This document shows, in pieces, positions 2,631 to 24,194 of a DNA stretch of 64,000 bases. Location of the stretch: the NCBI GenBank assembly GCA_934661005.1, contig CAKUIK010000003.1, forward strand, positions 998 to 64,997, written 5' to 3'. The position numbers and the translations under genes are program-made. Position 1 is the stretch's first letter. The number at the start of each line of letters is the position of its first letter. This DNA is from an uncultured Slackia sp. GTDB lineage: Bacteria > Actinomycetota > Coriobacteriia > Coriobacteriales > Eggerthellaceae. The notes beneath the pieces were generated by a model, which was not told where the DNA came from, searched no databases, and was given only the letters and a program-made list of their open reading frames with translations.

Positions 2631-4793
2631 ATGGAGAGCATGATGACGAGGCGAGGATTCCTCGCCGCGGGTGCCAGCTGTGCGGCATTGGCCGCGATTG
2701 GCACCTCGACGGGTTGTTCTTCCTCGCAAACTGAGCCCCTAAGCTCAGATGCCTCTGTTACGTACACCAAAGCGACTCTGTGCGCTGGCTGTGCGAATAA
2801 ATGCGGCATCGAAGCTTGGGTGCGCGGTGGAAAATTGTGGCGCTTTATGGGCGCCGAGGGCCATCCGCATGCTGGTGGATACATGTGTGGCCGTGGTCAG
2901 GGCCTGCCTTCGCTCACGACTTCCGAAGATCGCGTGACCGAGCCCATGAAGGGTGACGGCAAAGGCGGCTTCACGAAGGTGAGCTGGGATGACGCTCTTT
3001 CCGATATCGCCAGCCACATTACGGGCGCAGGCAGCAAGGTGGCGCTGTTCCAAGATGGACGCGCAACCGACGCCTGGTATGCGAAGCGCTTTATGGCTTC
3101 TGTCGGTTCGCCGAACTACTATGACGACTCTGCGCTTACCAATGTCAATATCGATGCCGCGTACGAGGCCCTTTTGGGCACGACGCCGGTGTTCGACACG
3201 GCCAACGCCGAATACATCGTGCTGCTCGACGCGAGCGGCGATGAAACGGTGCGCCCGGTCGAGGTCAAGGAGTTCCAGAAGGTTCGCGAAAACGGTGGCT
3301 ATGTGATGGCCGTCGACCCGCGCAACGCTGGCGCCGATATGCTCGCCGACGAGTGGGTCGCCGTTCGTCCTGGCTATGAGCTGGCATTTTTGCTGGGTAT
3401 CATGGGCGATATCGCCAAGAAGCTCGACTTCGACGCGAGCTTCGTCGAGCAATACGGCGAGGGCTTCGAGGAATTCCGCACCGCGATGCTCCAATATACG
3501 CCCGAATGGGCTGCCGAGAAGTGCGGCGTGTCGCTTGACGCGATTTATTCTGCGGAGCGAGGCCTTGTGAAAGCGGCCCCGCATTGTCATGTCGATGTTC
3601 GTCCGGGCGCGCTGCTTGGCTGCGGCTACTCAACGAGCTTCGAGACCGTTCGTTGCGCGGTTCTGCTCAACGCCATGCTCGGTGCGGTGAACCAGGCGGG
3701 CGGCATGTTCCTGGCGAAGGTTCCCGCTGTTGACGAGAACGTTTTCGAGAACGCGCCGTTCACGAAGGTCTCCGCTTCCGGCGACGGCATCGCCGAGGCT
3801 GGCGAGCTGGGCGTTGCGAGCTGCCAGGAAGCTTTGGGCGCTGCTGCCAAGGGCGGAGCCGACGTGGCGCTGTTCGTTGAGTGTGACCCCGCTGCCGATT
3901 GGGCCGATTCCGCCAAGGTCGAAGAAAACCTGTCCGGCATTGGTTTCAAGGTCGTCATCGATTCGGTTCTTACCGAAACGGCGCAGAAGGCCGACTACGT
4001 GCTTCCTGCTGCGACCTATCTTGAAGTCGAAAGCGTGGTTGCCCCCGTTGCCGCTGAATGGTCGGTTGCCGAAAAGCGCAACCAGGCCGTGGCTCCTGCG
4101 GGTGAGGCTCGCGCCGTCTACCAGATCTTCACCGATCTGGCGAAGGCGTGCGGAAAGGGCGACGATTTCGCATTCGAACTCGACGACGTCAACGAAGCCT
4201 TCTGCAAGGCATACGGCATTACGCTCGACGGCTTGAACGACACCGCGTGCTGCGCCATCCCCGGCGCTTCGGTGCTCGCGGGCGATGCTCCCGCGATTGG
4301 CACTGGGTCGGGCAAGATTCCGTTTGCAGGCGACGCGTTCGAGAAGGCCGGATTGGCGCGCACCCCGCAATACGCCGATCCCACGGTTGCGCCGAACGAC
4401 CACATGCCGCGCCTTATCACGGGCGCCCAGAGCCTGCAGACGCGCACCTATACCGCCGATGCCGATAAGATCGCCGCGCTTGCGAAAGATTCCGGTGCTG
4501 AGCGCGCATGGCTCAATCCGCAAACGGCGGCCAACTTTGGCATTGCCGACGGCGATGAGGCAGAGCTTTCTACCTCCACGGGCAAAATCCGCGTGAAGGT
4601 ACGCGTGACGAGCCTTATTAGCCCGGAAGCGGTGTACGTGCCGCCTCATTATGGCGTTGAATCGAAGGAAATGGCGCAGGCTGCCGGCTATGGCGTAAGC
4701 GTGTGGGACATCGTGCCTCGCGCGAGCGACGCTGCGACCGGCGCGGGCATGGTATGCGAGGTGCCCGTCGAGATCAGGAAGGTCGGTGCATAA
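2631..4793 (+). CDS. Molybdopterin (bis-PGD) oxidoreductase catalytic subunit, Tat-exported, PsrA/PhsA-like size class
   Basis: GAAAGGA RBS before ATG 2631. MTRRGFLAAGASCAALAAIG is a Tat signal. An N-terminal C-x2-C-x3-C...C cluster motif is present (LCAGCANKCG...YMCGRGQG). ~720 aa. Confidence 0.85.
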   Translation: MESMMTRRGFLAAGASCAALAAIGTSTGCSSSQTEPLSSDASVTYTKATLCAGCANKCGIEAWVRGGKLWRFMGAEGHPHAGGYMCGRGQGLPSLTTSEDRVTEPMKGDGKGGFTKVSWDDALSDIASHITGAGSKVALFQDGRATDAWYAKRFMASVGSPNYYDDSALTNVNIDAAYEALLGTTPVFDTANAEYIVLLDASGDETVRPVEVKEFQKVRENGGYVMAVDPRNAGADMLADEWVAVRPGYELAFLLGIMGDIAKKLDFDASFVEQYGEGFEEFRTAMLQYTPEWAAEKCGVSLDAIYSAERGLVKAAPHCHVDVRPGALLGCGYSTSFETVRCAVLLNAMLGAVNQAGGMFLAKVPAVDENVFENAPFTKVSASGDGIAEAGELGVASCQEALGAAAKGGADVALFVECDPAADWADSAKVEENLSGIGFKVVIDSVLTETAQKADYVLPAATYLEVESVVAPVAAEWSVAEKRNQAVAPAGEARAVYQIFTDLAKACGKGDDFAFELDDVNEAFCKAYGITLDGLNDTACCAIPGASVLAGDAPAIGTGSGKIPFAGDAFEKAGLARTPQYADPTVAPNDHMPRLITGAQSLQTRTYTADADKIAALAKDSGAERAWLNPQTAANFGIADGDEAELSTSTGKIRVKVRVTSLISPEAVYVPPHYGVESKEMAQAAGYGVSVWDIVPRASDAATGAGMVCEVPVEIRKVGA

Positions 4794-16239: not shown

Positions 16240-16914
16240 CTACAGGTCTTTCCGCTGGTAAATCGACGTGCTTATAGCGCAGCTGGCAGCGAAGAGCGCA
16301 AGCGATACGACGGTCAACATGGTGAACAAAAAACTTAAGTGGGAATCGGCCCAGACTCCGAAACGTTCAAGGAGCAGGGGATCGATTGCTTGCTCCGCAA
16401 TTGCGAAACAGATGCAACCAGCGAGAACGGCGAAGCACATAAGATAGCGTACGCCTTTCGTGGCGCCGAATTTGATGAGGGGCGGTTCACCAATGGCTAC
16501 CATGATGATGACCGAGAAGGTCGCAGTGAATGACCCTGCGGCTATCTCAATTGTCGGCATCGTTTCGAAATCGTGGATGAACGAAGGCAAAATGGCATTG
16601 AGTGCAATGCCAAGTACTGCCGCGCATGCGGCGGTAGCGAGGGATGCAAGAAGAATCGAGCCATATCGTGCAGCAATGACATCGCGGCGCGAGAAGGGCA
16701 GCGATGCGCGATAACGCCCCCATCCGTTTTGATCGTCATATGAGGCGAGCGAGAGCGTGAGAATCATGGGAACCATGGCGCTTACGCAAGCGGCGGCCGA
16801 AATACAATTGCCTATGGCGAACGTCATAATGGCGCAAATGGGCACGAGTATCACGGCGAACGCCGGCATGAAGGTGCTCAAGATGGCAAATTCCGATTTC
16901 AATGCCGCTTTCAT
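16240..16914 (-). CDS. ABC-2 type transporter permease
   Basis: 224 aa with about 6 TM helices. Its start overlaps the upstream ATPase stop by 4 nt. Confidence 0.75.
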   Translation of the reverse strand: MKAALKSEFAILSTFMPAFAVILVPICAIMTFAIGNCISAAACVSAMVPMILTLSLASYDDQNGWGRYRASLPFSRRDVIAARYGSILLASLATAACAAVLGIALNAILPSFIHDFETMPTIEIAAGSFTATFSVIIMVAIGEPPLIKFGATKGVRYLMCFAVLAGCICFAIAEQAIDPLLLERFGVWADSHLSFLFTMLTVVSLALFAASCAISTSIYQRKDL

Positions 16915-17792
16915 TGCGCAGCTCCTTTCAGCATAAAACGCAGGTAGTCTTCTATGGAGGCGTGGTCGCAGGGGATTTCGGGGAATGCTTCGGCGAATTC
17001 GAATCGATTAGGAACAAGCACGTCGCAGTTGAATTCGCGGTGCTCGGCGCGTGCTTCCTCGACGCATGCAAGAATCGCACGGGCCTGCTCTGCAGTGCAA
17101 TGAGCGATGCCTGCCATGTCGGTAATTTCCTCGCGAGGCATATCGAAAATGATGCGGCCGCCATCGATGCCCACAACGCGATCGGCGATGCGGTCCAAAT
17201 CGCTTGTGATGTGGCTTGACAGCAGCACGCCGCGATTGTCCTGGACGGTGAATTCGCGCAAAATGGTGAGCGTTTCATCGCGAGCGATGGGGTCGAGCCC
17301 CGCAGTGGCTTCGTCGAGCACGAGCAAATCGGCCTTATGCGAAAGCGCCACGGCGAGTTGCAGCTTCATGCCCATGCCGCGGGAGAGGTCCTTCACTTTC
17401 GCCTTGCGCGCGAGTGAAAAGCGTTCGGCGAGGTGCCAGAACTGTGCTCTATCCCAGGCGGGAAAGGCGAGCGCGAGGCAGCGCTCCACCTGTGCAATAG
17501 TGAATTCCGTCGGATAGGGGCACGTGTCGAACACCACTCCGATGCGCGAGCGCACGCGGCGCTGTGCGCTGTCGGGCACGTTCGGGCCGAAGGGCTCGCC
17601 GAGCAGGCGCACCTCGCCGGCGTCAAGTTTCATGAGCCCCAACGCGGCTCGAATGGTTGTGGTTTTGCCCGCGCCGTTTGCGCCGACGAAACCGACGACC
17701 TCGCCTGGCGCTACGGCAAGGTTCACGTTGCACAGCGCGAAGCTGTCACCAATCTTGCGCTGTGCATCTTTGATTTCCAAAAGGTTCGTCAT
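16911..17792 (-). CDS. ABC transporter ATP-binding protein
   Basis: Walker A GANGAGKTT, signature LSRGMGMKLQ, Walker B LLVLDEAT. Confidence 0.9.
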   Translation of the reverse strand: MTNLLEIKDAQRKIGDSFALCNVNLAVAPGEVVGFVGANGAGKTTTIRAALGLMKLDAGEVRLLGEPFGPNVPDSAQRRVRSRIGVVFDTCPYPTEFTIAQVERCLALAFPAWDRAQFWHLAERFSLARKAKVKDLSRGMGMKLQLAVALSHKADLLVLDEATAGLDPIARDETLTILREFTVQDNRGVLLSSHITSDLDRIADRVVGIDGGRIIFDMPREEITDMAGIAHCTAEQARAILACVEEARAEHREFNCDVLVPNRFEFAEAFPEIPCDHASIEDYLRFMLKGAAQ

Positions 17793-17804
17793 GATGCCGC
17801 CTTT

Positions 17805-18185
17805 CTATTCCAGCGTTTCGGGGGCTACGAGGTCGAGCGCCTTGTGCATATCGGCGCGGGTGACGCCGAGCGTTTCGGCGAGCGCCGCCGCTTGTGCGAG
17901 CAGTGCCTCCATGCGCCGCAACTCCTCTTCGCGCAGAAGTCCCTGATTGCCCGCTGCGACGAAGCAGCCCTTGCCCTGCACGGTTTCGATGAAGCCCGCT
18001 TCCTCCAAATCGGAGTAGGCGCGCTTGGTGGTAATGACGCTTACGCCGAGGCCGTTTGCAAGCGCGCGGATCGATGGCAGCTTCTCGCCGCTCACCAACG
18101 TGCCCGCCAAAATATGCGCTCGAATCTGCGACGCGATTTGCTCGTAGATGGGCTTGTCGCTCGAGTTGGATAGGATGATGTCCAC
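17805..18185 (-). CDS. GntR-family (YtrA-type, short) transcriptional regulator
   Basis: PIYEQIASQIRAHILAGTLVSGEKLPSIRALANGLGVSVITTKRAYSDLEEAGFI. AAAGGA RBS before GTG at 18185. The longer track ORF (to 18272) has no RBS. Confidence 0.85.
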   Translation of the reverse strand: MDIILSNSSDKPIYEQIASQIRAHILAGTLVSGEKLPSIRALANGLGVSVITTKRAYSDLEEAGFIETVQGKGCFVAAGNQGLLREEELRRMEALLAQAAALAETLGVTRADMHKALDLVAPETLE

Positions 18186-18199
18186 GATGGTTCCTTTAC

Positions 18200-18233
18200 G
18201 TGTATATAACCGGTAAGCACAGTATATATACAC
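18200..18233. promoter_or_regulatory. Inverted repeat GTGTATATA-N16-TATATACAC; candidate YtrA-type operator
   Basis: Located 15-48 nt upstream of the GntR start on the coding strand. Confidence 0.5.
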
Positions 18234-18489
18234 TATGCACAGTTGCGCAAGGGGGCGTTTTGCTTTTTTCAATCGGGCTGGTGCGGTGCGTGCAAAGGCT
18301 TTCGCTTCGCGATTTCTCGGCTTGGATAAATTGCGAGTGTATCGTGGGCGATATGCGGGAATATTGCTCGAGGCTGAGGGAGAATTCTTTACGCCGTAAA
18401 AAGAAACAACCCAGCAAGCCGAGCATCACGTGCCTTTGCGGGGCTGTCTTCGAAACACGGTGGGTGTTAGTGTGGGGTTTGGAGCGCGC

Positions 18490-19377
18490 CTAACGATTTA
18501 CTCGTTTCGTGTGGAGCGCATCGATGACCTTGTCGGCGCTTGCGTCGATAAGAATCGATTGGTGTTCGATTTCGACAGGCGCCACCGCTTCGCCGAGATT
18601 CACGCAGGCGTACGTGGCATGTTGGTTTTCGGCGGCCATTTGCCAAAACGGATACTTGATGATGCCGGGCGTGTTGCCGCCGACGCCGAATTCCAAAAAG
18701 AGCGTTCGCATGCCTTTGTGTCGATGAAGGAAATCGCGGTATCGATTGGCGGCGGCGTGCCAGCCTTCGTCTTCGACGAAGGTGCCATCGGAGCGAAGGT
18801 TCATTGTTGCGTGTGATCCACAATGGGGGCAATAGGGCACAAGCTCGCTTGGTATACGCATGTTGTCTTGTTGATCCACCATGGCTAGAACGCTCTCCTC
18901 GTTGCTCCAGGTTTTTTGGCAGCACGGGCGGCTGCATTGGAAGAGGCCGTAATCGCCTTGCGTATAGAACAGGCGATGCTTGTCGAACCCCGCGCGTTGG
19001 AAGCAGTGATCGACGTTGGTGGTGAGCACGAAGTAATCGCGGCCGCGCATGAGTTCGAGCAGCTGCTCATAGACAGGCTTTGGAATTGGGTCGAAACGGT
19101 TGCACGCGATGTATCGGCTCCAAAACGCCCAATACTATTCAAAAGTTTTATAGGGATAGAATCCGCCTGCATACATATCGGTAAAGCCATATTTCGCGGC
19201 GAAATCGCCAAAAAGGCGCTCGAAACGTTCGCCTGCATATGTGTAGCCCGCTGCGGTGGAAAGTCCTGCGCCCGCGCCTATTACAACGGCGTCTGCCGAC
19301 TCAATCGCGTTTTGCAGTTTATCGATTTGTTCCGAGAAGCTCTTGGTAGATTGCTTCGTTAGACGGGAGAAATACAT
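18490..19377 (-). pseudogene. SIR2-family protein of the macrodomain-linked SirTM type, interrupted by one in-frame TAG (19135-19137)
   Basis: Track ORFs 19135..19377 (AVVIGAGAGLSTAAGYTY...YPYKTFE*) and 18490..19050 (DYFVLTTNVDHCFQRAGF...TQGDYGLFQCSRPCC...CPHCGS) are in the same frame. The 28 codons between them (YWAFWSRYIACNRFDPIPKPVYEQLLEL) are open. Confidence 0.8.
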
Positions 19378-20104
19378 CGAATATCACCTTGAGATGGGGG
19401 TCGTTTTCCTGTAGGTAGCCAGTGACGGTATCGAGGGCGATGCGCGCTGCGTCGCGTTGGGGATAGCCGAACACGCCTGTTGATATGCAGCAGAATGCGA
19501 TGGTGCCCAAATGGCGCTCGGTTGCCGCGGTAAGGCATCGCTCATAGCACTGGCGAAGCAGCAGCTCATCGGTATTGCTTGGGCGGGCGTTTGCGACGAT
19601 GGGACCCACGGTGTGGAACACGAAGCGGCTCGGCAAGTTGAATGCGGGCGTGACTTTCACGCGGCCTGTTGGTTCGGGGTGCCCCTGGGAGCACATGAAC
19701 TTGGCGCACGCGATGCGCAGTTGCATGCCGGCGAAAGTGTGAATAGCGTTATCGATGCAATGGTGTCCGGGCGCGAAGCACCCGAGCATCTGATCATTCG
19801 CGGCGCTGACGATGGCATCTGCGGCAAGAAGCGTGATATCTCCGCGCCAGAGGGCAATGCGGCCGCGATAATCGAGCGTTTGTGCGCTTGTCGCGCCTCC
19901 GCGCTCAATAAGGCGTCGTTGCAGGTAAGCGTCTTGGACGGCGAGCATATCGGGCATTAGGGCTTCTGGCATGCGCGTATTCATGAGCGCCCGCAGCAGT
20001 TCTCGCTGTTTTGTTTCTTCCTCGGGGATTTTCGCCAAGGAAGATTCTCCGCGTTCCTCGAGAAGAGCCCTGATTAAAAAGAGCCTGCGTTGCGCCTGAT
20101 TCAT
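19319..20104 (-). CDS. Macrodomain protein (protein-ADP-ribose hydrolase type)
   Basis: RIALWRGDITLLAADAIVSAANDQMLGCFAPGHHCIDNAIH...VFHTVGPIV. ATG 20104 shares one base with the rSAM stop (TGATG). Confidence 0.85.
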   Translation of the reverse strand: MNQAQRRLFLIRALLEERGESSLAKIPEEETKQRELLRALMNTRMPEALMPDMLAVQDAYLQRRLIERGGATSAQTLDYRGRIALWRGDITLLAADAIVSAANDQMLGCFAPGHHCIDNAIHTFAGMQLRIACAKFMCSQGHPEPTGRVKVTPAFNLPSRFVFHTVGPIVANARPSNTDELLLRQCYERCLTAATERHLGTIAFCCISTGVFGYPQRDAARIALDTVTGYLQENDPHLKVIFDVFLPSNEAIYQELLGTNR

Positions 20105-21150
20105 CAGCCTAGATCCTTCCAACATTGCGGGTCGGCATCGTACATGTCGCCCGTGTAGCCAAACGTGACGGCGGGGCATCCGCGACACCAGTCGAACAAC
20201 TCGCACGTTGAGCATTTTTTGAATTTCTTGAATTCGCGCTTGGCTTCCATCGCAGGCGAGAAGAACAGACTTTCGAGCGTGTTCTCTGCTACATTTCCGA
20301 TCTTGCTTTCCATGCGGCGGCAGGCGTACACGTCGCCCGTGGGCAGCACGGTCATGTGGCCCGTTCCGCAGTGACATCCGTCGTATATCATGCCCGGTTT
20401 GGCGTCTTTAGGAATGGCGAAGCGTCCCTGTTCCCATAAAAGCAACGTCCATAGATGGTCTTTGAGCTGGAAGAACGTTTTGCAACCACGTGATTGGTGA
20501 TAATCTATGCGCTCTTGCGCCGCAAGGAGTACGTTGCGATATTCCAGGGGTTCCATATGGAACTCGTCGCGCGCCTGGCCCGAGGTGGGGCAGTAGCGCC
20601 CGAAGGCGAACACATCGACCTCGAGGCTTGCCACCAAATCGATGAGCTTCGGAAGCTCGTGCGCGTTCGTGCTCGAAACGGTATTCATGATGGCGACCCA
20701 AATGCCTGCGCGCTTGAGGCATTCAATGGCGCGCAGCGTATCGGCGAACGAGCCGGGCTTACGGAAATAATCGTGCGTAGCATCGAGCCCGTCGAGTGAG
20801 AGCTGGTATTTGCGGCAGCCGAGTTCTTTCATGCGACGGCAGGTTTCGTCGTCCAAATGGAAGGGATTGCCCATGACGCACCACATGAAACCACGTTCAT
20901 GCAAAAGCTCCGCTAGCCGCCAGAAGTCGGGGTGCAAGATGGGGTCGCCACCAGTCACGTAGAAATAGGGCTGTCGATTGAGCTTTTCGCAAAGCTCCTC
21001 GGCTTGATCGACGACTTCCTCCATTTGGCTCCACGGCATGCGCGTGAATCCAGCGCAGTCGCCGTTGGCGAAAATGTAGCAATGCTTGCAGCGCTGGTCG
21101 CATTCATCGGTGATGTGCCATTGAAATGCAAATGCGGGCTTGGGGGCCAT
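20104..21150 (-). CDS. Radical SAM enzyme with C-terminal SPASM domain; no N-terminal RRE domain
   Basis: CDQRCKHC (C-x3-C-x2-C) at residues 17-24. SPASM Cys pattern CHCGTGHMTVLPTGDVYAC...CSTCELFDWCRGC...QCW. 348 aa. GAAAGGA RBS. Confidence 0.9.
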   Translation of the reverse strand: MAPKPAFAFQWHITDECDQRCKHCYIFANGDCAGFTRMPWSQMEEVVDQAEELCEKLNRQPYFYVTGGDPILHPDFWRLAELLHERGFMWCVMGNPFHLDDETCRRMKELGCRKYQLSLDGLDATHDYFRKPGSFADTLRAIECLKRAGIWVAIMNTVSSTNAHELPKLIDLVASLEVDVFAFGRYCPTSGQARDEFHMEPLEYRNVLLAAQERIDYHQSRGCKTFFQLKDHLWTLLLWEQGRFAIPKDAKPGMIYDGCHCGTGHMTVLPTGDVYACRRMESKIGNVAENTLESLFFSPAMEAKREFKKFKKCSTCELFDWCRGCPAVTFGYTGDMYDADPQCWKDLG

Positions 21151-21213
21151 GGGTAATCCTTTCTATAAAGGAGGGTTTTATGAGTTTGGGGCGCGGGTGT
21201 TGAGCGGGCGTTG

Positions 21214-21825
21214 TTAGAGGCGCTCGATGGCGTCGGCGGGGCAGTTTTCGGCGCACGAGCCGCAGTGCAAGCAATGATTCTGTTGGATGCGGTACATATC
21301 TCCAGGCGTGATGCACTTTTGAGGACAGTGCTTCAAGCATGTGCCGCAGCCAATGCAGTCATCGGTTATTCGGTAGCCTTTGGCGGAAGGGGGCGTGCCG
21401 TCGAGCATATACACCGCACGCTCGATGGGATGGGTTCCGAGGTTGAAGTAATCGATTGCGATGTTGCTCACCTTGAAGATGATGCCGATATCGCGCGTGT
21501 CACCTGGATATACGTTGGAGAGGTAGGGCTGTTCGGAAAAAATTACGTCAATCCACTTTTTCTGCTCATTTTGCGGCGCGGGTTTGGTTGCGCCGCTCAT
21601 GCGAATCATTTCGTTGAAGCGCGTGTGCACGAGCGTTTGGATTCTGCCGTCCGCCAAAAGCTGCTGAGTCATTTCTTTGCCACGAGCAGTAAAGAAATAG
21701 ATGGCATCGGGCTCGTAATGAACGGCGCTCACGCAGCGAATTTGAGGGGCGCCGGTTGCGTCGGTCGTTGCGAGCGAAAGCGTTCCAGCGAGTTTCATTT
21801 TTGCGAGACAGGTTTGCGCGTCCAT
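21214..21825 (-). CDS. PNPOx-like FMN-binding split-barrel domain fused to a 2x[4Fe-4S] ferredoxin domain
   Basis: The N-terminal ~140 aa are PNPOx-like (LSLATTDATGAPQIRCVSAV...IYFFTARGKEM). The C-terminus has CIGCGTCLKHCP and CLHCGSCAENCP. AGAAAGGG RBS. Confidence 0.7.
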   Translation of the reverse strand: MDAQTCLAKMKLAGTLSLATTDATGAPQIRCVSAVHYEPDAIYFFTARGKEMTQQLLADGRIQTLVHTRFNEMIRMSGATKPAPQNEQKKWIDVIFSEQPYLSNVYPGDTRDIGIIFKVSNIAIDYFNLGTHPIERAVYMLDGTPPSAKGYRITDDCIGCGTCLKHCPQKCITPGDMYRIQQNHCLHCGSCAENCPADAIERL

Positions 21826-21850
21826 TACGAGCCCTTTCTACGAGGATTGA

Positions 21851-22078
21851 TTACTGAGCGTCGGCGGTGCCGCAGGCGGGCGCAGCCTTCGGGTCGGCGG
21901 TGCCGCAGGCGGGCGCAGGGTCAGCGGAGCCGCAGGCGGGTGCGGCCTTCGGATCGGCGGTGCCGCAGGCGGGCGCAGGCTCGGCGGTGCCACATGCGGT
22001 GCCGCAAGCAGGAGCCGCTTTGGGGTCGGCGGTGCCGCAAGCGGCGAAGGCGGCGACGTTGGAGAGGTTCTCGGACAT
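21851..22078 (-). CDS. 75-aa Cys/Asp-repeat peptide; candidate RiPP precursor (ranthipeptide-like, six C-x3-[D/E] motifs)
   Basis: MSENLSNVAAFAACGTADPKAAPACGTACGTAEPAPACGTADPKAAPACGSADPAPACGTADPKAAPACGTADAQ. GAAAGGA RBS 6 nt before ATG 22078. First gene of the rSAM array. Embedded in track ORF 21851..22171. Confidence 0.7.
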   Translation of the reverse strand: MSENLSNVAAFAACGTADPKAAPACGTACGTAEPAPACGTADPKAAPACGSADPAPACGTADPKAAPACGTADAQ

Positions 22079-22330
22079 GGTGATTCCTTTCGACGTGACG
22101 CATCGGAGGAGGCGTCGTGATGAAGCGCGTTTTCGCGCATGGCTATCATCCGAAAAAGTGAATTCATGCAAAAGAAGGCACTAAACTATTACCCGCTTAC
22201 CAAAAGGTAAGTAGGTGCAATTTCGTTAGCGGCTGCGATAATGGAATCGCTTCGTGGGCAGGTGCGATTTGGCCGCGCGAAAAGCCTCGCCCAATAATGT
22301 GGTGCCGCGAATATGCGAGAAAGGATTGGC

Positions 22331-22663
22331 ATGCTTACCAAGGAAGAACTGCCCCCGTGCCCTGTTGCCACGTGCTTTCAGCTGTTCGGCAACAAATGGA
22401 AGATTTATATCATTCAGCAGCTCATAGACCAGCCGTATGGCTTCAATGCCTTGCAGCGGGCCATTCCTGGCATCAGCCAAAAGGTACTCTCGTCCAATCT
22501 CAAAGAAATGGAGTCGGCGGGCCTTGTCACTCGTACGGTGATTCCCGAAACGCCCATTCGTACGGAATATGCGCTTTCTGACGTTGGTAAGAGCCTTCTG
22601 CCCCTGATAGATTCCATGGTCGAATGGGGAACGGGGTACCAGCGGCTTGTGCTTGAGGCATAA
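22331..22663 (+). CDS. HxlR-family (MarR-like winged helix) transcriptional regulator, divergent from the peptide/rSAM array
   Basis: [22 protein letters not shown]...[42 protein letters not shown] before ATG 22331. Confidence 0.85.
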
Positions 22664-22676
22664 AGGAGGCTTCATT

Positions 22677-23507
22677 ATGCTCACTGTTGGATGCCACTTG
22701 TCTACTTCGAAGGGCTTTGCCGCCATGGGGCGCACGGCGCTTTCCCTTGGCGCGAATACGTTCGCATTTTTCACGCGCAACCCTCGTGGCGGCTCGGCCA
22801 AGGCAATTGATGCGGCCGATGCCGCGGCATTGCGCGAGCTCATGGCTGAACACGACTTTGGCCCGTTGGTGGCGCATGCCCCCTATACGCTCAACCCTTG
22901 CTCGGCCAAGCCCGAGGCGCGCGAATTCGCTCGCATGTGCATGGCCGACGATTTGGTGCGTATGGAAGCCGTTCCGCACAGCTACTACAATTTCCACCCG
23001 GGCAGCCACGTGAAACAGGGCACAGAATGCGGCATTGAGCTCATTGCGGGCCTGCTCAACGAGGTGCTCGCGCCCGAACAAACCACTACGGTGTTGCTCG
23101 AAACCATGGCGGGCAAGGGTACTGAAGTGGGTCGCACGTTCGAGGAGCTTGCGGCGATCATCGAGCGCGTTGAACGCGCCGATCACGTGGGCGTGTGCCT
23201 CGATACCTGCCATGTATGGGACGGTGGCTACGATATCGTGGGCGACCTCGACGGCGTGTTGGAGGAATTCGATTGCGTGGTGGGGTTGCCGCGCTTGCGC
23301 GCAGTGCATATCAACGATTCGAAAAACTCATGTGGCGCGCACAAAGATCGCCACGAGAAAATCGGCCAAGGCTTCATCGGCGTAGAAGCATTCGAGCGCA
23401 TCGTGAACCACCCTGCGCTGCGCGAGTTGCCGTTCATTCTGGAAACCCCCAATGAACTGCCTGGCTATGCCGAGGAAATCGCTTTGCTGCGCAGCCTTGC
23501 CGAATAG
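22677..23507 (+). CDS. nfo: Endonuclease IV (deoxyribonuclease IV)
   Basis: MLTVGCHLS...[10 protein letters not shown]...NFHPGSH...[12 protein letters not shown]...[13 protein letters not shown]...HINDSK...[22 protein letters not shown]. Confidence 0.9.
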
Positions 23508-23593
23508 ACTTTAATAATAATCGAACGTATGTTTGGTATAATAAAGGAGGAGACTATTAGCAACGCTTGACGTTATTAACGCGAGGAGTTACT

Positions 23594-23875
23594 ATGATTG
23601 CATCGTTCGGGGATAAAGACACCGAAAAGCTCGCGCGAGGCATAAGGGTTCGACGTTTCGTTTCCTTCGAGAGAGTTGCCCTTCGCAAATTACGACAGCT
23701 TCAGGTTTCGGTATCTTTGGACGATTTGCGCATTCCTCCAGGAAATCGCCTTGAATCGTTGAAGGGCAATCTTGAGGGCTGGCACAGCATTCGAATCAAT
23801 GACCAGTTCAGAATCATTTTTCAATGGCAAGATGGAAATGCTGAACATGTGCAAATAGTTGACTACCATAGCTAA
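23594..23875 (+). CDS. higB: HigB toxin (RelE/ParE superfamily)
   Basis: MIASFGDKDTEKLARG...RKLRQLQVSVSLDDLRIPPGNRLESLKGNLEGWHSIRINDQFRIIFQW. Confidence 0.8.
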   Translation: MIASFGDKDTEKLARGIRVRRFVSFERVALRKLRQLQVSVSLDDLRIPPGNRLESLKGNLEGWHSIRINDQFRIIFQWQDGNAEHVQIVDYHS

Positions 23876-23888
23876 GGGGTGAAGCGAT

Positions 23889-24194
23889 ATGTCAGATTTT
23901 CTTGGCCCTGTGACTCCGGGCGAACTTTTGAAAGAGGAGTTTTTGGAGCCGATGGGCATTTCTCAATATCGCCTCGCGAAAGAAATCGGCGTGCCCGCGC
24001 AACGCATCGGCCAAATAGTTCTTGGCAAGCGTTCCATTACGGCCGATACCGATTTGCGCTTGTGCGCATTCTTCGGGCTGTCCGATGGCTATTGGCTGCG
24101 CGCGCAGGCTGCATACGATATCGAGATTGCTCGAAGGAAGATTGCTCCTGAGCTTAAGAAAATTCGTCCGTGGAATGCGGTGGCTGTGTTGTAG
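23889..24194 (+). CDS. higA: HigA antitoxin (XRE-family HTH)
   Basis: PGELLKEEFLEPMGISQYRLAKEIGVPAQRIGQIVLGKRSITADTDLRLCAFFG. Confidence 0.85.
   Translation: MSDFLGPVTPGELLKEEFLEPMGISQYRLAKEIGVPAQRIGQIVLGKRSITADTDLRLCAFFGLSDGYWLRAQAAYDIEIARRKIAPELKKIRPWNAVAVL

Follow-up and report, generated by a model that had tools for sequence, protein, structure and literature searches.

A predicted substrate peptide of an ACGX-type radical-SAM/SPASM system in an uncultured Slackia genome

The DNA analyzed here is a stretch of 64,000 nucleotides (nt) from an uncultured Slackia sp. (assembly GCA_934661005.1, contig CAKUIK010000003.1), referred to below as the window. Our subject is a short open reading frame (ORF) on its minus strand, which encodes a cysteine-containing repeat peptide of 75 amino acids (aa) near a radical S-adenosylmethionine (SAM) enzyme. 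An initial annotation of this DNA had proposed that the ORF is an overlooked gene and that its product is the substrate of the nearby radical-SAM enzyme. We find that the gene is real and that its product is almost certainly the substrate of this radical-SAM/SPASM enzyme.

The repeat-peptide gene

The features of the peptide gene itself are the following.

21851..22078, minus strand: putative ACGX-repeat precursor peptide, 75 aa, assigned from its motif and from homologues beside TIGR04340 enzymes
22085..22091, minus strand: ribosome-binding site GAAAGGA, 6 nt before the ATG, kept in an alignment of nine intergenic regions
21860..21999, no strand assigned: tandem DNA repeats with a period of 33/60 nt, encoding the peptide units (Tandem Repeats Finder)

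The ORF begins with an ATG at 22078 and ends with a stop codon at 21851–21853, and its product is MSENLSNVAAFAACGTADPKAAPACGTACGTAEPAPACGTADPKAAPACGSADPAPACGTADPKAAPACGTADAQ. The peptide consists of a conserved N-terminus of 13 residues, MSENLSNVAAFAA, five single units of the form A-C-G-[T/S]-A-D-[P/A], and one double unit, ACGT-ACGTAEP. All seven cysteines (residues 14, 25, 29, 38, 49, 58 and 69) lie within A-C-G-[T/S], and six of them belong to C-x3-[D/E] motifs; at Cys25 the +4 position is occupied by Cys29 and not by an acid. These counts agree with the initial annotation, and such an arrangement is not a consequence of composition, as none of 200,000 composition shuffles of the peptide reached six C-x3-[D/E] motifs (the best shuffle had 5). 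Of the 1168 stop-to-stop segments with 30 aa or more in the window, just one contains ACG[STA] more than once; it is the frame of the peptide, which has 7 copies. The initial annotation had also described DNA repeats that encode the units, a well-placed ribosome-binding site, and an unusually short segment ahead of the first motif. Tandem Repeats Finder places the repeats at 21860–21999 with periods of 33 and 60 nt, the ribosome-binding site is present at 22085–22091 with its 6-nt spacing and is conserved, and the 13-residue segment is conserved in homologues. The repeat copies vary synonymously (TGC/TGT, GCT/GCC/GCA, GAC/GAT, CCC/CCG/CCT).

Related loci were collected in two scans. With the radical-SAM protein as the query, one genome per species was scanned, which returned 80 loci; the best match (99% identity) belongs to an uncultured Slackia sp. 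of a Hadza gut sample, and Collinsella, with C. aerofaciens ATCC 25986 among them, accounts for most of the rest. A scan of metagenomes yielded 80 further loci with enzymes 51–64% identical to the radical-SAM enzyme of the window. The initial annotation had predicted that repeat peptides would adjoin radical-SAM orthologues in other genomes, and this is what the scans reveal. In 76 of the 80 genome loci a peptide starting with MSENLxxVAAF[A/S]xCG is encoded about 900 nt upstream of the radical-SAM gene on the same strand, and a repeat peptide occupies the corresponding position just upstream of the enzyme, again on the same strand, in most of 85 metagenome loci. Of the four genome loci without a peptide, three are cut by contig ends, and the fourth (L079) shows the MSENL start in the alignment and was missed by the screen.

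The alignments of these homologues also bear on the reading frame. Pairwise differences among 30 distinct leader sequences number 628, 173 and 2721 at codon positions 1, 2 and 3, respectively, confirming the expectation that variation in relatives would preserve the frame. The same residues are encoded by other codons in relatives with 53–57% G+C. The homologues uniformly start with MSENL, and the sequence 5' of MSENL is unrelated across genera. The number of units varies among homologues, which contain 4 to 12 Cys, always in frame; near-identical Slackia genomes, with enzymes 97–99% identical (locus L001 from 3134 onwards, locus L002 from 727 onwards, and the window), have peptides of 55, 75 and 84 aa with 5, 7 and 8 Cys, the window peptide being the one of 75 aa. 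Collapse of repeats in short-read assemblies could add to this spread in unit number.

Several other ORFs overlap the peptide: a 106-aa form extended to a TTG start, a 109-aa ORF in an alternative frame, a 105-aa antisense ORF, and a 290-aa ORF on the plus strand. The 106-aa form and the antisense ORF are those that the initial annotation had described as hiding the peptide and competing with it. Conservation of frame and start, together with the third-position bias, rules out three of these as the real gene: the form with the TTG start (106 aa), the ORF in the alternative frame (109 aa) and the antisense ORF. One could suppose that there is no gene here at all, but a GC-rich DNA repeat in which an overlapping ORF (the antisense 105 aa or the alternative 109 aa) or none is expressed. 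The region does have 75% G+C, frames are open on both strands, and public calls leave it unannotated. This explanation is already contradicted by the data, and we give it practically no credence: the sole conserved frame is that of the peptide, the differences among relatives are concentrated at third codon positions (628/173/2721), the same amino-acid motif is written with different codons in relatives of 53–57% G+C, gain and loss of units are always in frame, and the ribosome-binding site is conserved. Because the frame, the start and the ribosome-binding site are conserved and the motif is far beyond chance, 21851–22078 is a real and hitherto unannotated gene, read in this frame and from this start.

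Gene finders, like the curated peptide model discussed below, routinely miss or mis-call the ACGX peptide. Public calls in other genomes are often wrong: the 82-aa call at locus L081 (3675–3923 vs 3569–3889) runs through the repeat in a wrong frame, many Collinsella calls (P0121, P0127 and others) have a non-conserved N-terminal extension, MVLRKNARTNRR, and several listed ‘homologues’ of the peptide are frameshifted read-throughs. Pfam yields no match for the window peptide, and the exact peptide was not found in the protein collection searched. The Pfam entry PF27855.1 is precomputed on some of the homologues (P0121, P0127–P0131, P0143 and others).

The radical-SAM partner and the predicted modification

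A single gene separates the peptide from its presumed modifying enzyme, on the same strand.

20104..21150, minus strand: radical-SAM/SPASM enzyme of the ACGX system, 348 aa (TIGR04340; Pfam Radical_SAM and SPASM)

The enzyme scores 524.9 bits against TIGR04340 “rSAM_ACGX” (“radical SAM/SPASM domain protein, ACGX system”), where the cutoff is 400, and the match covers model positions 2–340 of 341. It has 3466 homologues at E ≤ 1e-20, and the sources of several among the 120 listed give them the name ‘ACGX system’. There is no close solved structure, the best being SkfB, BlsE and CteB at E values of 1e-9 to 1e-10. The CX3CX2C motif lies at residues 17–24 and Pfam yields Radical_SAM and SPASM alone. 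The position of the motif leaves no room for an N-terminal recognition domain, and the short leader would therefore have to be recognized directly by the enzyme.

The ACGX system has already been named, with curated models for both enzyme (TIGR04340) and peptide (TIGR04341), so the peptide is not an unrecognized class of precursor. The system itself is defined by computation alone and has no experimentally known product or function. The window locus shares with it an enzyme above the cutoff and a peptide with repeated A-C-G-X, X being T or S, encoded just upstream on the same strand. It departs from it in several respects. The window peptide scores below the model cutoff; its leader is of the 13-aa MSENLxxVAAF type, whereas the leader elsewhere is of a ‘..SAQGY..’ type with 20–35 aa; its units are mostly single ACGxADP, whereas ACGSACGAGD doublets are found elsewhere; and a PNPOx-ferredoxin gene comes between those of the peptide and the enzyme. 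Scores against TIGR04341 rise from 19.3 bits for a Collinsella-type peptide to 28–82 bits for peptides beside more distant enzymes of the same family, some of which have a ..VAAF leader. By motif, partner and position, the window peptide is thus an ACGX peptide from a divergent sub-family with a short leader, one that the curated model misses, and this accounts for the lack of annotation. The peptide and the enzyme would work like a precursor and a maturase of a peptide that is made on the ribosome and then modified post-translationally (RiPP), as a divergent member of a known but uncharacterized kind. We regard it as very likely that an ACGX-type radical-SAM/SPASM system has the product of this ORF as its substrate. 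The system spans common Coriobacteriia of the human gut (Collinsella aerofaciens including ATCC 25986, Slackia, Eggerthella, Olsenella) and many Clostridia.

The anatomy of the repeat unit was surveyed in 14 distinct peptides of the Coriobacteriia type and 31 distant ones, which together contain 278 C-G sites. The glycine at +1 of the cysteine is invariant at these sites, position −1 is Ala in 259 of them (~93%) and otherwise almost always Ser or Gly, and position +2 is Ser, Thr or Ala. An acid is found at the +4 position in 181 sites (C-x3-D/E), while 87 sites are C-x3-C whose second Cys has D/E at its own +4; 10 sites fit neither pattern, and 6 of these are C-x2-D. Single units with the 13-aa leader dominate in the clade of the window. 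Among distant members the doublet ACGSACGAGD is dominant, and the N-terminal part has 20–35 aa, often with SAQGY. Judged from this survey, the acid is as integral to the unit as ACG, and the unit can be written as (ACGx)1-2-x-[D/E]-[P/K].

Under the mechanism that we propose, the MSENLxxVAAF segment is probably the handle recognized by the radical-SAM enzyme, and the rest of the peptide would be a string of modification units of variable length, A-C-G-x-x-[D/E]-P or A-C-G-x-A-C-G-x-x-[D/E]. The enzyme may act once per unit, on or beside the cysteine. As for the chemistry, we rank first a thioether between the sulfur of Cys and the beta carbon of Asp (or the gamma carbon of Glu), at a confidence somewhat short of even, because the invariant acid keeps a fixed spacing and because PapB installs thioethers at six C-x3-D/E motifs (PMC9413430). 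One thioether per unit would turn the peptide into a chain of small rings with a loss of 2 Da per unit. The conservation of C-x3-D/E throughout the family supports such a ranthipeptide-like reading, and the resemblance to PapA/PapB (freyrasin) and QhpC/QhpD would extend to the presence of several C-x3-D/E motifs with small residues in a short peptide and of a radical-SAM/SPASM enzyme next door.

Several observations count against the thioether. By sequence, the window enzyme is far closer to SbtM, the best-scoring characterized family after ACGX, than to PapB: it scores 182 bits against the SbtM model TIGR04082 (E 1.8e-53; cutoff 350), of which only model positions 198–515 of 516 are matched, and 60.2 bits against the PapB model NF047865 (cutoff 340), and it is not a member of the PapB family. 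The Ala at −1 and the Gly at +1 suggest that the backbone near the cysteine matters, which PapB does not need. In the doublets (‘ACGSACGxxD’), which occur throughout the family, the first Cys has no acid partner. Lastly, an ‘ACGSD’ sub-family (ACGSDV or ACGSDI; locus L143, 367–621) has the acid at +3 with no Pro or Lys after it, and the spacing between Cys and acid is therefore not absolutely fixed. The contrast with PapA/PapB and QhpC/QhpD thus lies in an enzyme with 60 bits on the PapB model and no recognition domain, in ACGX doublets that leave an unpaired Cys, in the absence here of an export or protease context and, for PapA/PapB, in the invariant +1 Gly and nearly constant −1 Ala of the ACGX units, neither of which PapB requires.

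These observations bring a Cys-only chemistry to a close second place, which we nevertheless consider unlikely. SbtM converts Cys or selenocysteine into a thio(seleno)oxazole with the loss of four hydrogens, the product of Cys being a thiooxazole (PMC11002830). If the ACGX enzyme acted in the same manner, each Cys would lose 4 H and form a 5-thiooxazole with the carbonyl of the preceding residue. The Ala at −1 (~93%) and the invariant Gly at +1 suit a cyclization that involves the backbone, and all cysteines would be used, including the first Cys of the doublets. SbtM is, moreover, the nearest characterized family (182 bits compared to 60 for PapB) and, like the ACGX enzyme, acts on Cys in a small peptide. 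Thiooxazole peptides are described as metal binders; the units (one or two heterocycles and a carboxylate) would then form metal-binding sites, and the product would be an anaerobe counterpart of oxygen-dependent thiooxazole metallophores such as bufferins. Bufferins are exported, whereas the window peptide has no signal peptide, and the neighbors of the ACGX genes are redox and electrophile-stress enzymes and not genes of metal homeostasis. The score is only half the SbtM cutoff (182 vs 350), and the N-terminal half of SbtM, a part of about 200 residues in the model, is absent from the window enzyme. Two further differences are that the window peptide has no selenocysteine codon and that its substrate sequence is repetitive with an obligatory acid; thiooxazole formation by itself leaves the near-invariant +4 acid unexplained. 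With the enzyme below the cutoff of both models, the system would be filed neither as a ranthipeptide nor as SbtM-type. As the acid is as conserved as the ACG core, the peptide offers a cheap biochemical way to separate two known radical-SAM chemistries.

Operon, regulator and conserved neighborhood

The genes around the peptide and its partner enzyme form a compact operon with a divergently transcribed regulator.

21214..21825, minus strand: PNPOx-like flavin mononucleotide (FMN)-binding domain fused to a 2x[4Fe-4S] ferredoxin, 203 aa, between the peptide and the radical-SAM gene
19319..20104, minus strand: zinc-containing macrodomain (protein-ADP-ribose hydrolase), its start overlapping the radical-SAM stop codon by 1 nt
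18490..19377, minus strand: class-M sirtuin SirTM, an ADP-ribosyltransferase with a QG motif, with a TAG at 19135–19137
18409..18424, minus strand: terminator-like hairpin and T-run after the last operon gene (consensus match only)
22313..22663, plus strand: HxlR-family (DUF24/MarR-type) transcription factor, divergent from the operon (Pfam HxlR, 92.1 bits)
22197..22210, no strand assigned: palindrome TTACCAAAAGGTAA (TTACC-N4-GGTAA), a candidate operator, between the HxlR gene and the peptide operon

Five packed genes follow each other on the minus strand in the order peptide, PNPOx-ferredoxin, radical-SAM enzyme, zinc macrodomain and SirTM. The initial annotation had overlooked the extension of the operon past the radical-SAM gene and the divergent HxlR gene. 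The HxlR protein has the redox regulator RrpB as its nearest NCBIfam model, and an N-terminal ‘CPV’ cysteine is kept in the HxlR copies examined. In the thiol-stress regulators YodB, HypR and QorR the N-terminal Cys is the sensing residue. The palindrome is unique in the window and is matched in none of 100 shuffles. Its exact sequence occurs in 37 Coriobacteriia loci, mostly within the intergenic stretch that separates the HxlR and peptide genes, and several distant loci have it as well, so that it is conserved across Slackia, Collinsella, Eggerthella and some of the distant loci. It sits in a conserved block at about 22170–22245 (CATTATCGCAG ... TAATAGTTTAGTGCCTTCTTTTG), which probably holds both divergent promoters; a sigma-70 scan gave no more hits than in shuffles, and the promoter positions are placed by conservation only. 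The operon would thus be read from a region in which a conserved palindrome lies beside a divergent regulator of the HxlR type that carries the cysteine, and it may be under HxlR control. This arrangement resembles HxlR/DUF24 thiol-stress regulons of the YodB, HypR and QorR type, which likewise combine a divergent HxlR regulator with an N-terminal Cys, quinone-reductase or nitroreductase genes nearby, and a palindrome in the shared intergenic region. It differs from them in that the first gene under the presumed control is a repeat peptide with a radical-SAM enzyme.

To describe the neighborhood in the family as a whole, all ORFs of 92 diverse loci were clustered. The recurrent genes are as follows.

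HxlR: 57 of 92 loci
Qor-like reductase with a zinc-ADH (alcohol dehydrogenase) fold: 44 of 92 loci
SirTM: 34 of 92 loci
Nitroreductase: 31 of 92 loci
PNPOx-ferredoxin: 25 of 92 loci
Zinc macrodomain (Zn-Macro): 20 of 92 loci
DUF1848: 12 of 92 loci
FMN reductase: 7 of 92 loci

Genes for flavodoxins, short-chain dehydrogenases/reductases and aldo-keto reductases also recur, in few copies. Because many metagenome contigs are short, the co-occurrence fractions have small denominators. Dereplication of the loci at 90% enzyme identity gave 61 groups. At least one of Qor, nitroreductase and PNPOx-ferredoxin is carried by 32 of the 33 dereplicated loci with at least 3 kb of downstream sequence. HxlR is found in 32 of the 40 with at least 1.5 kb upstream, and SirTM or Zn-Macro in 9 of the 13 with at least 5 kb on both flanks. 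For comparison, by our estimate chance would bring a single-copy gene to within 10 kb of a given gene in fewer than 1% of genomes of 2–3 Mb. The PNPOx-ferredoxin is present in all Coriobacteriia loci where the extent of the contig permits. In lineages without it the adjacent oxidoreductase is a Qor-like reductase or a nitroreductase, and the families often co-occur. As a separate observation, DUF1848 (12 loci) and DUF5131 (4 loci) recur by ACGX enzymes, often between the oxidoreductase and SirTM or the macrodomain (for example L082, 3495–4424; L084, 5704–6639; L081, 6936–7790).

The gene order differs between genera. In Slackia and Eggerthella the HxlR gene diverges from a unit with the order peptide, PNPOx, radical-SAM enzyme, macrodomain and SirTM. 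In Collinsella (L006–L078, for example L078, 778–2902) SirTM and the macrodomain are behind HxlR on the opposite strand, divergent from peptide, PNPOx and radical-SAM enzyme. The rearrangement in Collinsella keeps both transcription units on one intergenic region, which means that the linkage survives rearrangement.

The initial annotation had remarked that the cluster contains no transporter or peptidase and had preferred an intracellular role to that of a secreted antimicrobial. The first remark extends well beyond the window, as no recurrent transporter or peptidase was found in the ORF clusters of the 92 diverse loci or across about 150 related loci, and an intracellular role is likelier than secretion for that reason. 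The recurrent partners, namely HxlR, flavin and NAD(P)H oxidoreductases and the SirTM/zinc-macrodomain pair, lend the preference further support. We consider it reasonably probable that the product remains cytoplasmic and takes part in the response to thiol or redox stress. In the proposed scheme, the PNPOx-ferredoxin, co-transcribed with the peptide, would either feed electrons to the radical-SAM enzyme or cycle the modified peptide. A SirTM ADP-ribosyltransferase and a zinc-macrodomain eraser would be co-transcribed with the peptide as well, and the module may answer thiol, oxidant or electrophile stress through HxlR. Hydride-transfer enzymes such as the Qor-like reductases and nitroreductases are unable to reduce iron-sulfur clusters, which would argue that their target is the product or a small electrophile.

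Other roles can be weighed against the same evidence. A secreted antimicrobial ranthipeptide, with an N-terminal leader cut by a protease and with export by a transporter encoded elsewhere, is suggested by the C-x3-D/E motif, which is like that of freyrasin, and by an ABC ATPase and permease about 0.7 kb past the operon (16240–17792). The ABC/GntR module is, however, not conserved beside the system (GntR is found in 1 of 85 loci), and in the 92 diverse loci no cluster of transporters or peptidases is recurrent. The enzyme is without a recognition domain, and no separate PqqD-like gene recurs near it in the same clustering. The peptide is acidic and freely variable in repeat number, unlike typical bacteriocins, and the conserved partners are cytoplasmic stress enzymes; together these points leave secretion very unlikely. 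The peptide could instead be the precursor of a small redox cofactor in the manner of pyrroloquinoline quinone or mycofactocin, with the units modified, excised and used by the Qor-like, nitroreductase or PNPOx enzymes. A radical-SAM/SPASM enzyme and a small peptide by dehydrogenase genes is the pattern of PqqA/PqqE and MftA/MftC, an oxidoreductase follows the radical-SAM gene in 32 of 33 informative loci, and several identical units per precursor would boost the yield. Yet there is no peptidase or other tailoring enzyme nearby, the family of the partner oxidoreductase is inconstant (Qor, nitroreductase or PNPOx), and the radical-SAM enzyme scores just 87 bits on the MftC model, so that a cofactor precursor seems to us a highly improbable role.

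The reading that we prefer as a whole, a substrate of an ACGX radical-SAM enzyme that is modified at its Cys units and serves in redox stress without being exported, is one that we hold to be probable, although by no means secure, and all of its functional statements are drawn from gene linkage and sequence motifs. Some findings weigh on the other side of the balance. The window peptide scores only 8.5 bits (E 3.2) against the TIGR04341 model ‘ACGX-repeat peptide’, well below the cutoff of 28. No experimental work on any ACGX system was found in the literature searched, which means that the modification of the peptide is itself deduced from gene linkage. The co-location with stress genes may also come from shared regulation only. 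If the ordinary reading alone is true, the peptide is one more member of an uncharacterized RiPP-like family. Its interest rests on the acid within the unit, on a context that points to the cytoplasm and to redox stress, and on the linkage to SirTM and the zinc macrodomain.

The link to SirTM and the zinc macrodomain

Both ADP-ribosylation genes of the operon are close relatives of structurally characterized proteins. The macrodomain scores 313.5 bits against NF003163 (cutoff 272), and its closest solved relative is PDB 8rsi, the Zn-Macro of Methanobrevibacter oralis (E 2.8e-70; 5kiv, 4.1e-58), making it closest to the M. oralis ‘minimal operon’ type. An intact copy of SirTM from Slackia matches PDB 5a3a, the SirTM of S. 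pyogenes, at E 2.9e-74, with QGDYGL aligned to QGEYGL. The window locus likewise pairs a zinc macrodomain with a class-M sirtuin whose catalytic His is replaced by QG, but this SirTM contains a stop codon: an in-frame TAG stands where two Slackia relatives (L001 and L002) have GAG, a single G-to-T difference. It is either a pseudogene in this genome or the result of a read or assembly error; the adjacent macrodomain is intact. The 120 SirTM homologues listed are near-identical Collinsella or Slackia-type sequences and do not constitute an independent sample.

In Staphylococcus and Streptococcus, SirTM ADP-ribosylates lipoyl-GcvH-L, likely at Asp27 and only after lipoylation, and the Zn-Macro of the operon reverses the modification; the extended operon also has flavin oxidoreductases and responds to oxidative stress (PMC4518038). 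A study from 2024 names GcvH-L as the sole known target of SirTM, describes the targets of other SirTM/Zn-Macro pairs as elusive, and states that the ‘minimal operon’ macrodomain of M. oralis cannot demodify GcvH-L (PMC11490716). No paper on SirTM paired with a radical-SAM enzyme was found in the literature searched. There is no GcvH-L or LplA2 gene at 18.4–23.5 kb of the window, and neither is among the recurrent clusters of the neighborhood survey, of which the larger were run against Pfam and the rest judged by eye.

In its gene content the window operon closely resembles the extended SirTM operon (GcvH-L, LplA2, SirTM, Zn-Macro and flavin oxidoreductases). Both combine SirTM and Zn-Macro with a small sulfur-bearing acidic polypeptide, the enzyme that modifies it, and flavin oxidoreductases; in the extended operon the acceptor of ADP-ribose is an Asp, and the operon has a role in oxidative stress. 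They differ in that the carrier here is a ribosomal peptide of Cys/Asp repeats and not a lipoyl protein, that the modifying enzyme is a radical-SAM enzyme and not a lipoate ligase, and that the macrodomain of the window is nearest to the M. oralis type, which is inactive on GcvH-L. ADP-ribosylation of the peptide is our hypothesis. We speculate that the ACGX peptide, once modified by the radical-SAM enzyme, might be the missing physiological partner of the ‘minimal’ SirTM/zinc-macrodomain pairs and might act there much as lipoyl-GcvH-L does, with an invariant Asp or Cys reversibly ADP-ribosylated and the module switched on by a thiol-stress sensor of the HxlR type in strictly anaerobic gut bacteria. 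As a complete proposal this seems to us unlikely, and parts of the evidence disfavor it: between about a third and a half of the informative loci lack SirTM or Zn-Macro, the stop codon in the window SirTM implies that SirTM is not essential to the function of the peptide, and shared regulation alone could account for the linkage. The repeated physical linkage nonetheless nominates the ACGX peptide as a concrete candidate target of SirTM and Zn-Macro, which bears on the question raised by the 2024 study (PMC11490716).

A few features of the surrounding DNA complete the description of the locus. No RNA family was found by Rfam at 18000–23000. Just past the operon terminator, a GntR-type regulator, an ABC ATPase and a permease occupy 16240–18272 on the minus strand; this ABC/GntR module was considered as a part of the system and rejected because it is not conserved, and it is probably unrelated. 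On the other side, at 23567–24194 on the plus strand, two adjacent small ORFs (102 and 101 aa) resemble, by eye, a HigB-type toxin and a HigA-type helix-turn-helix antitoxin.

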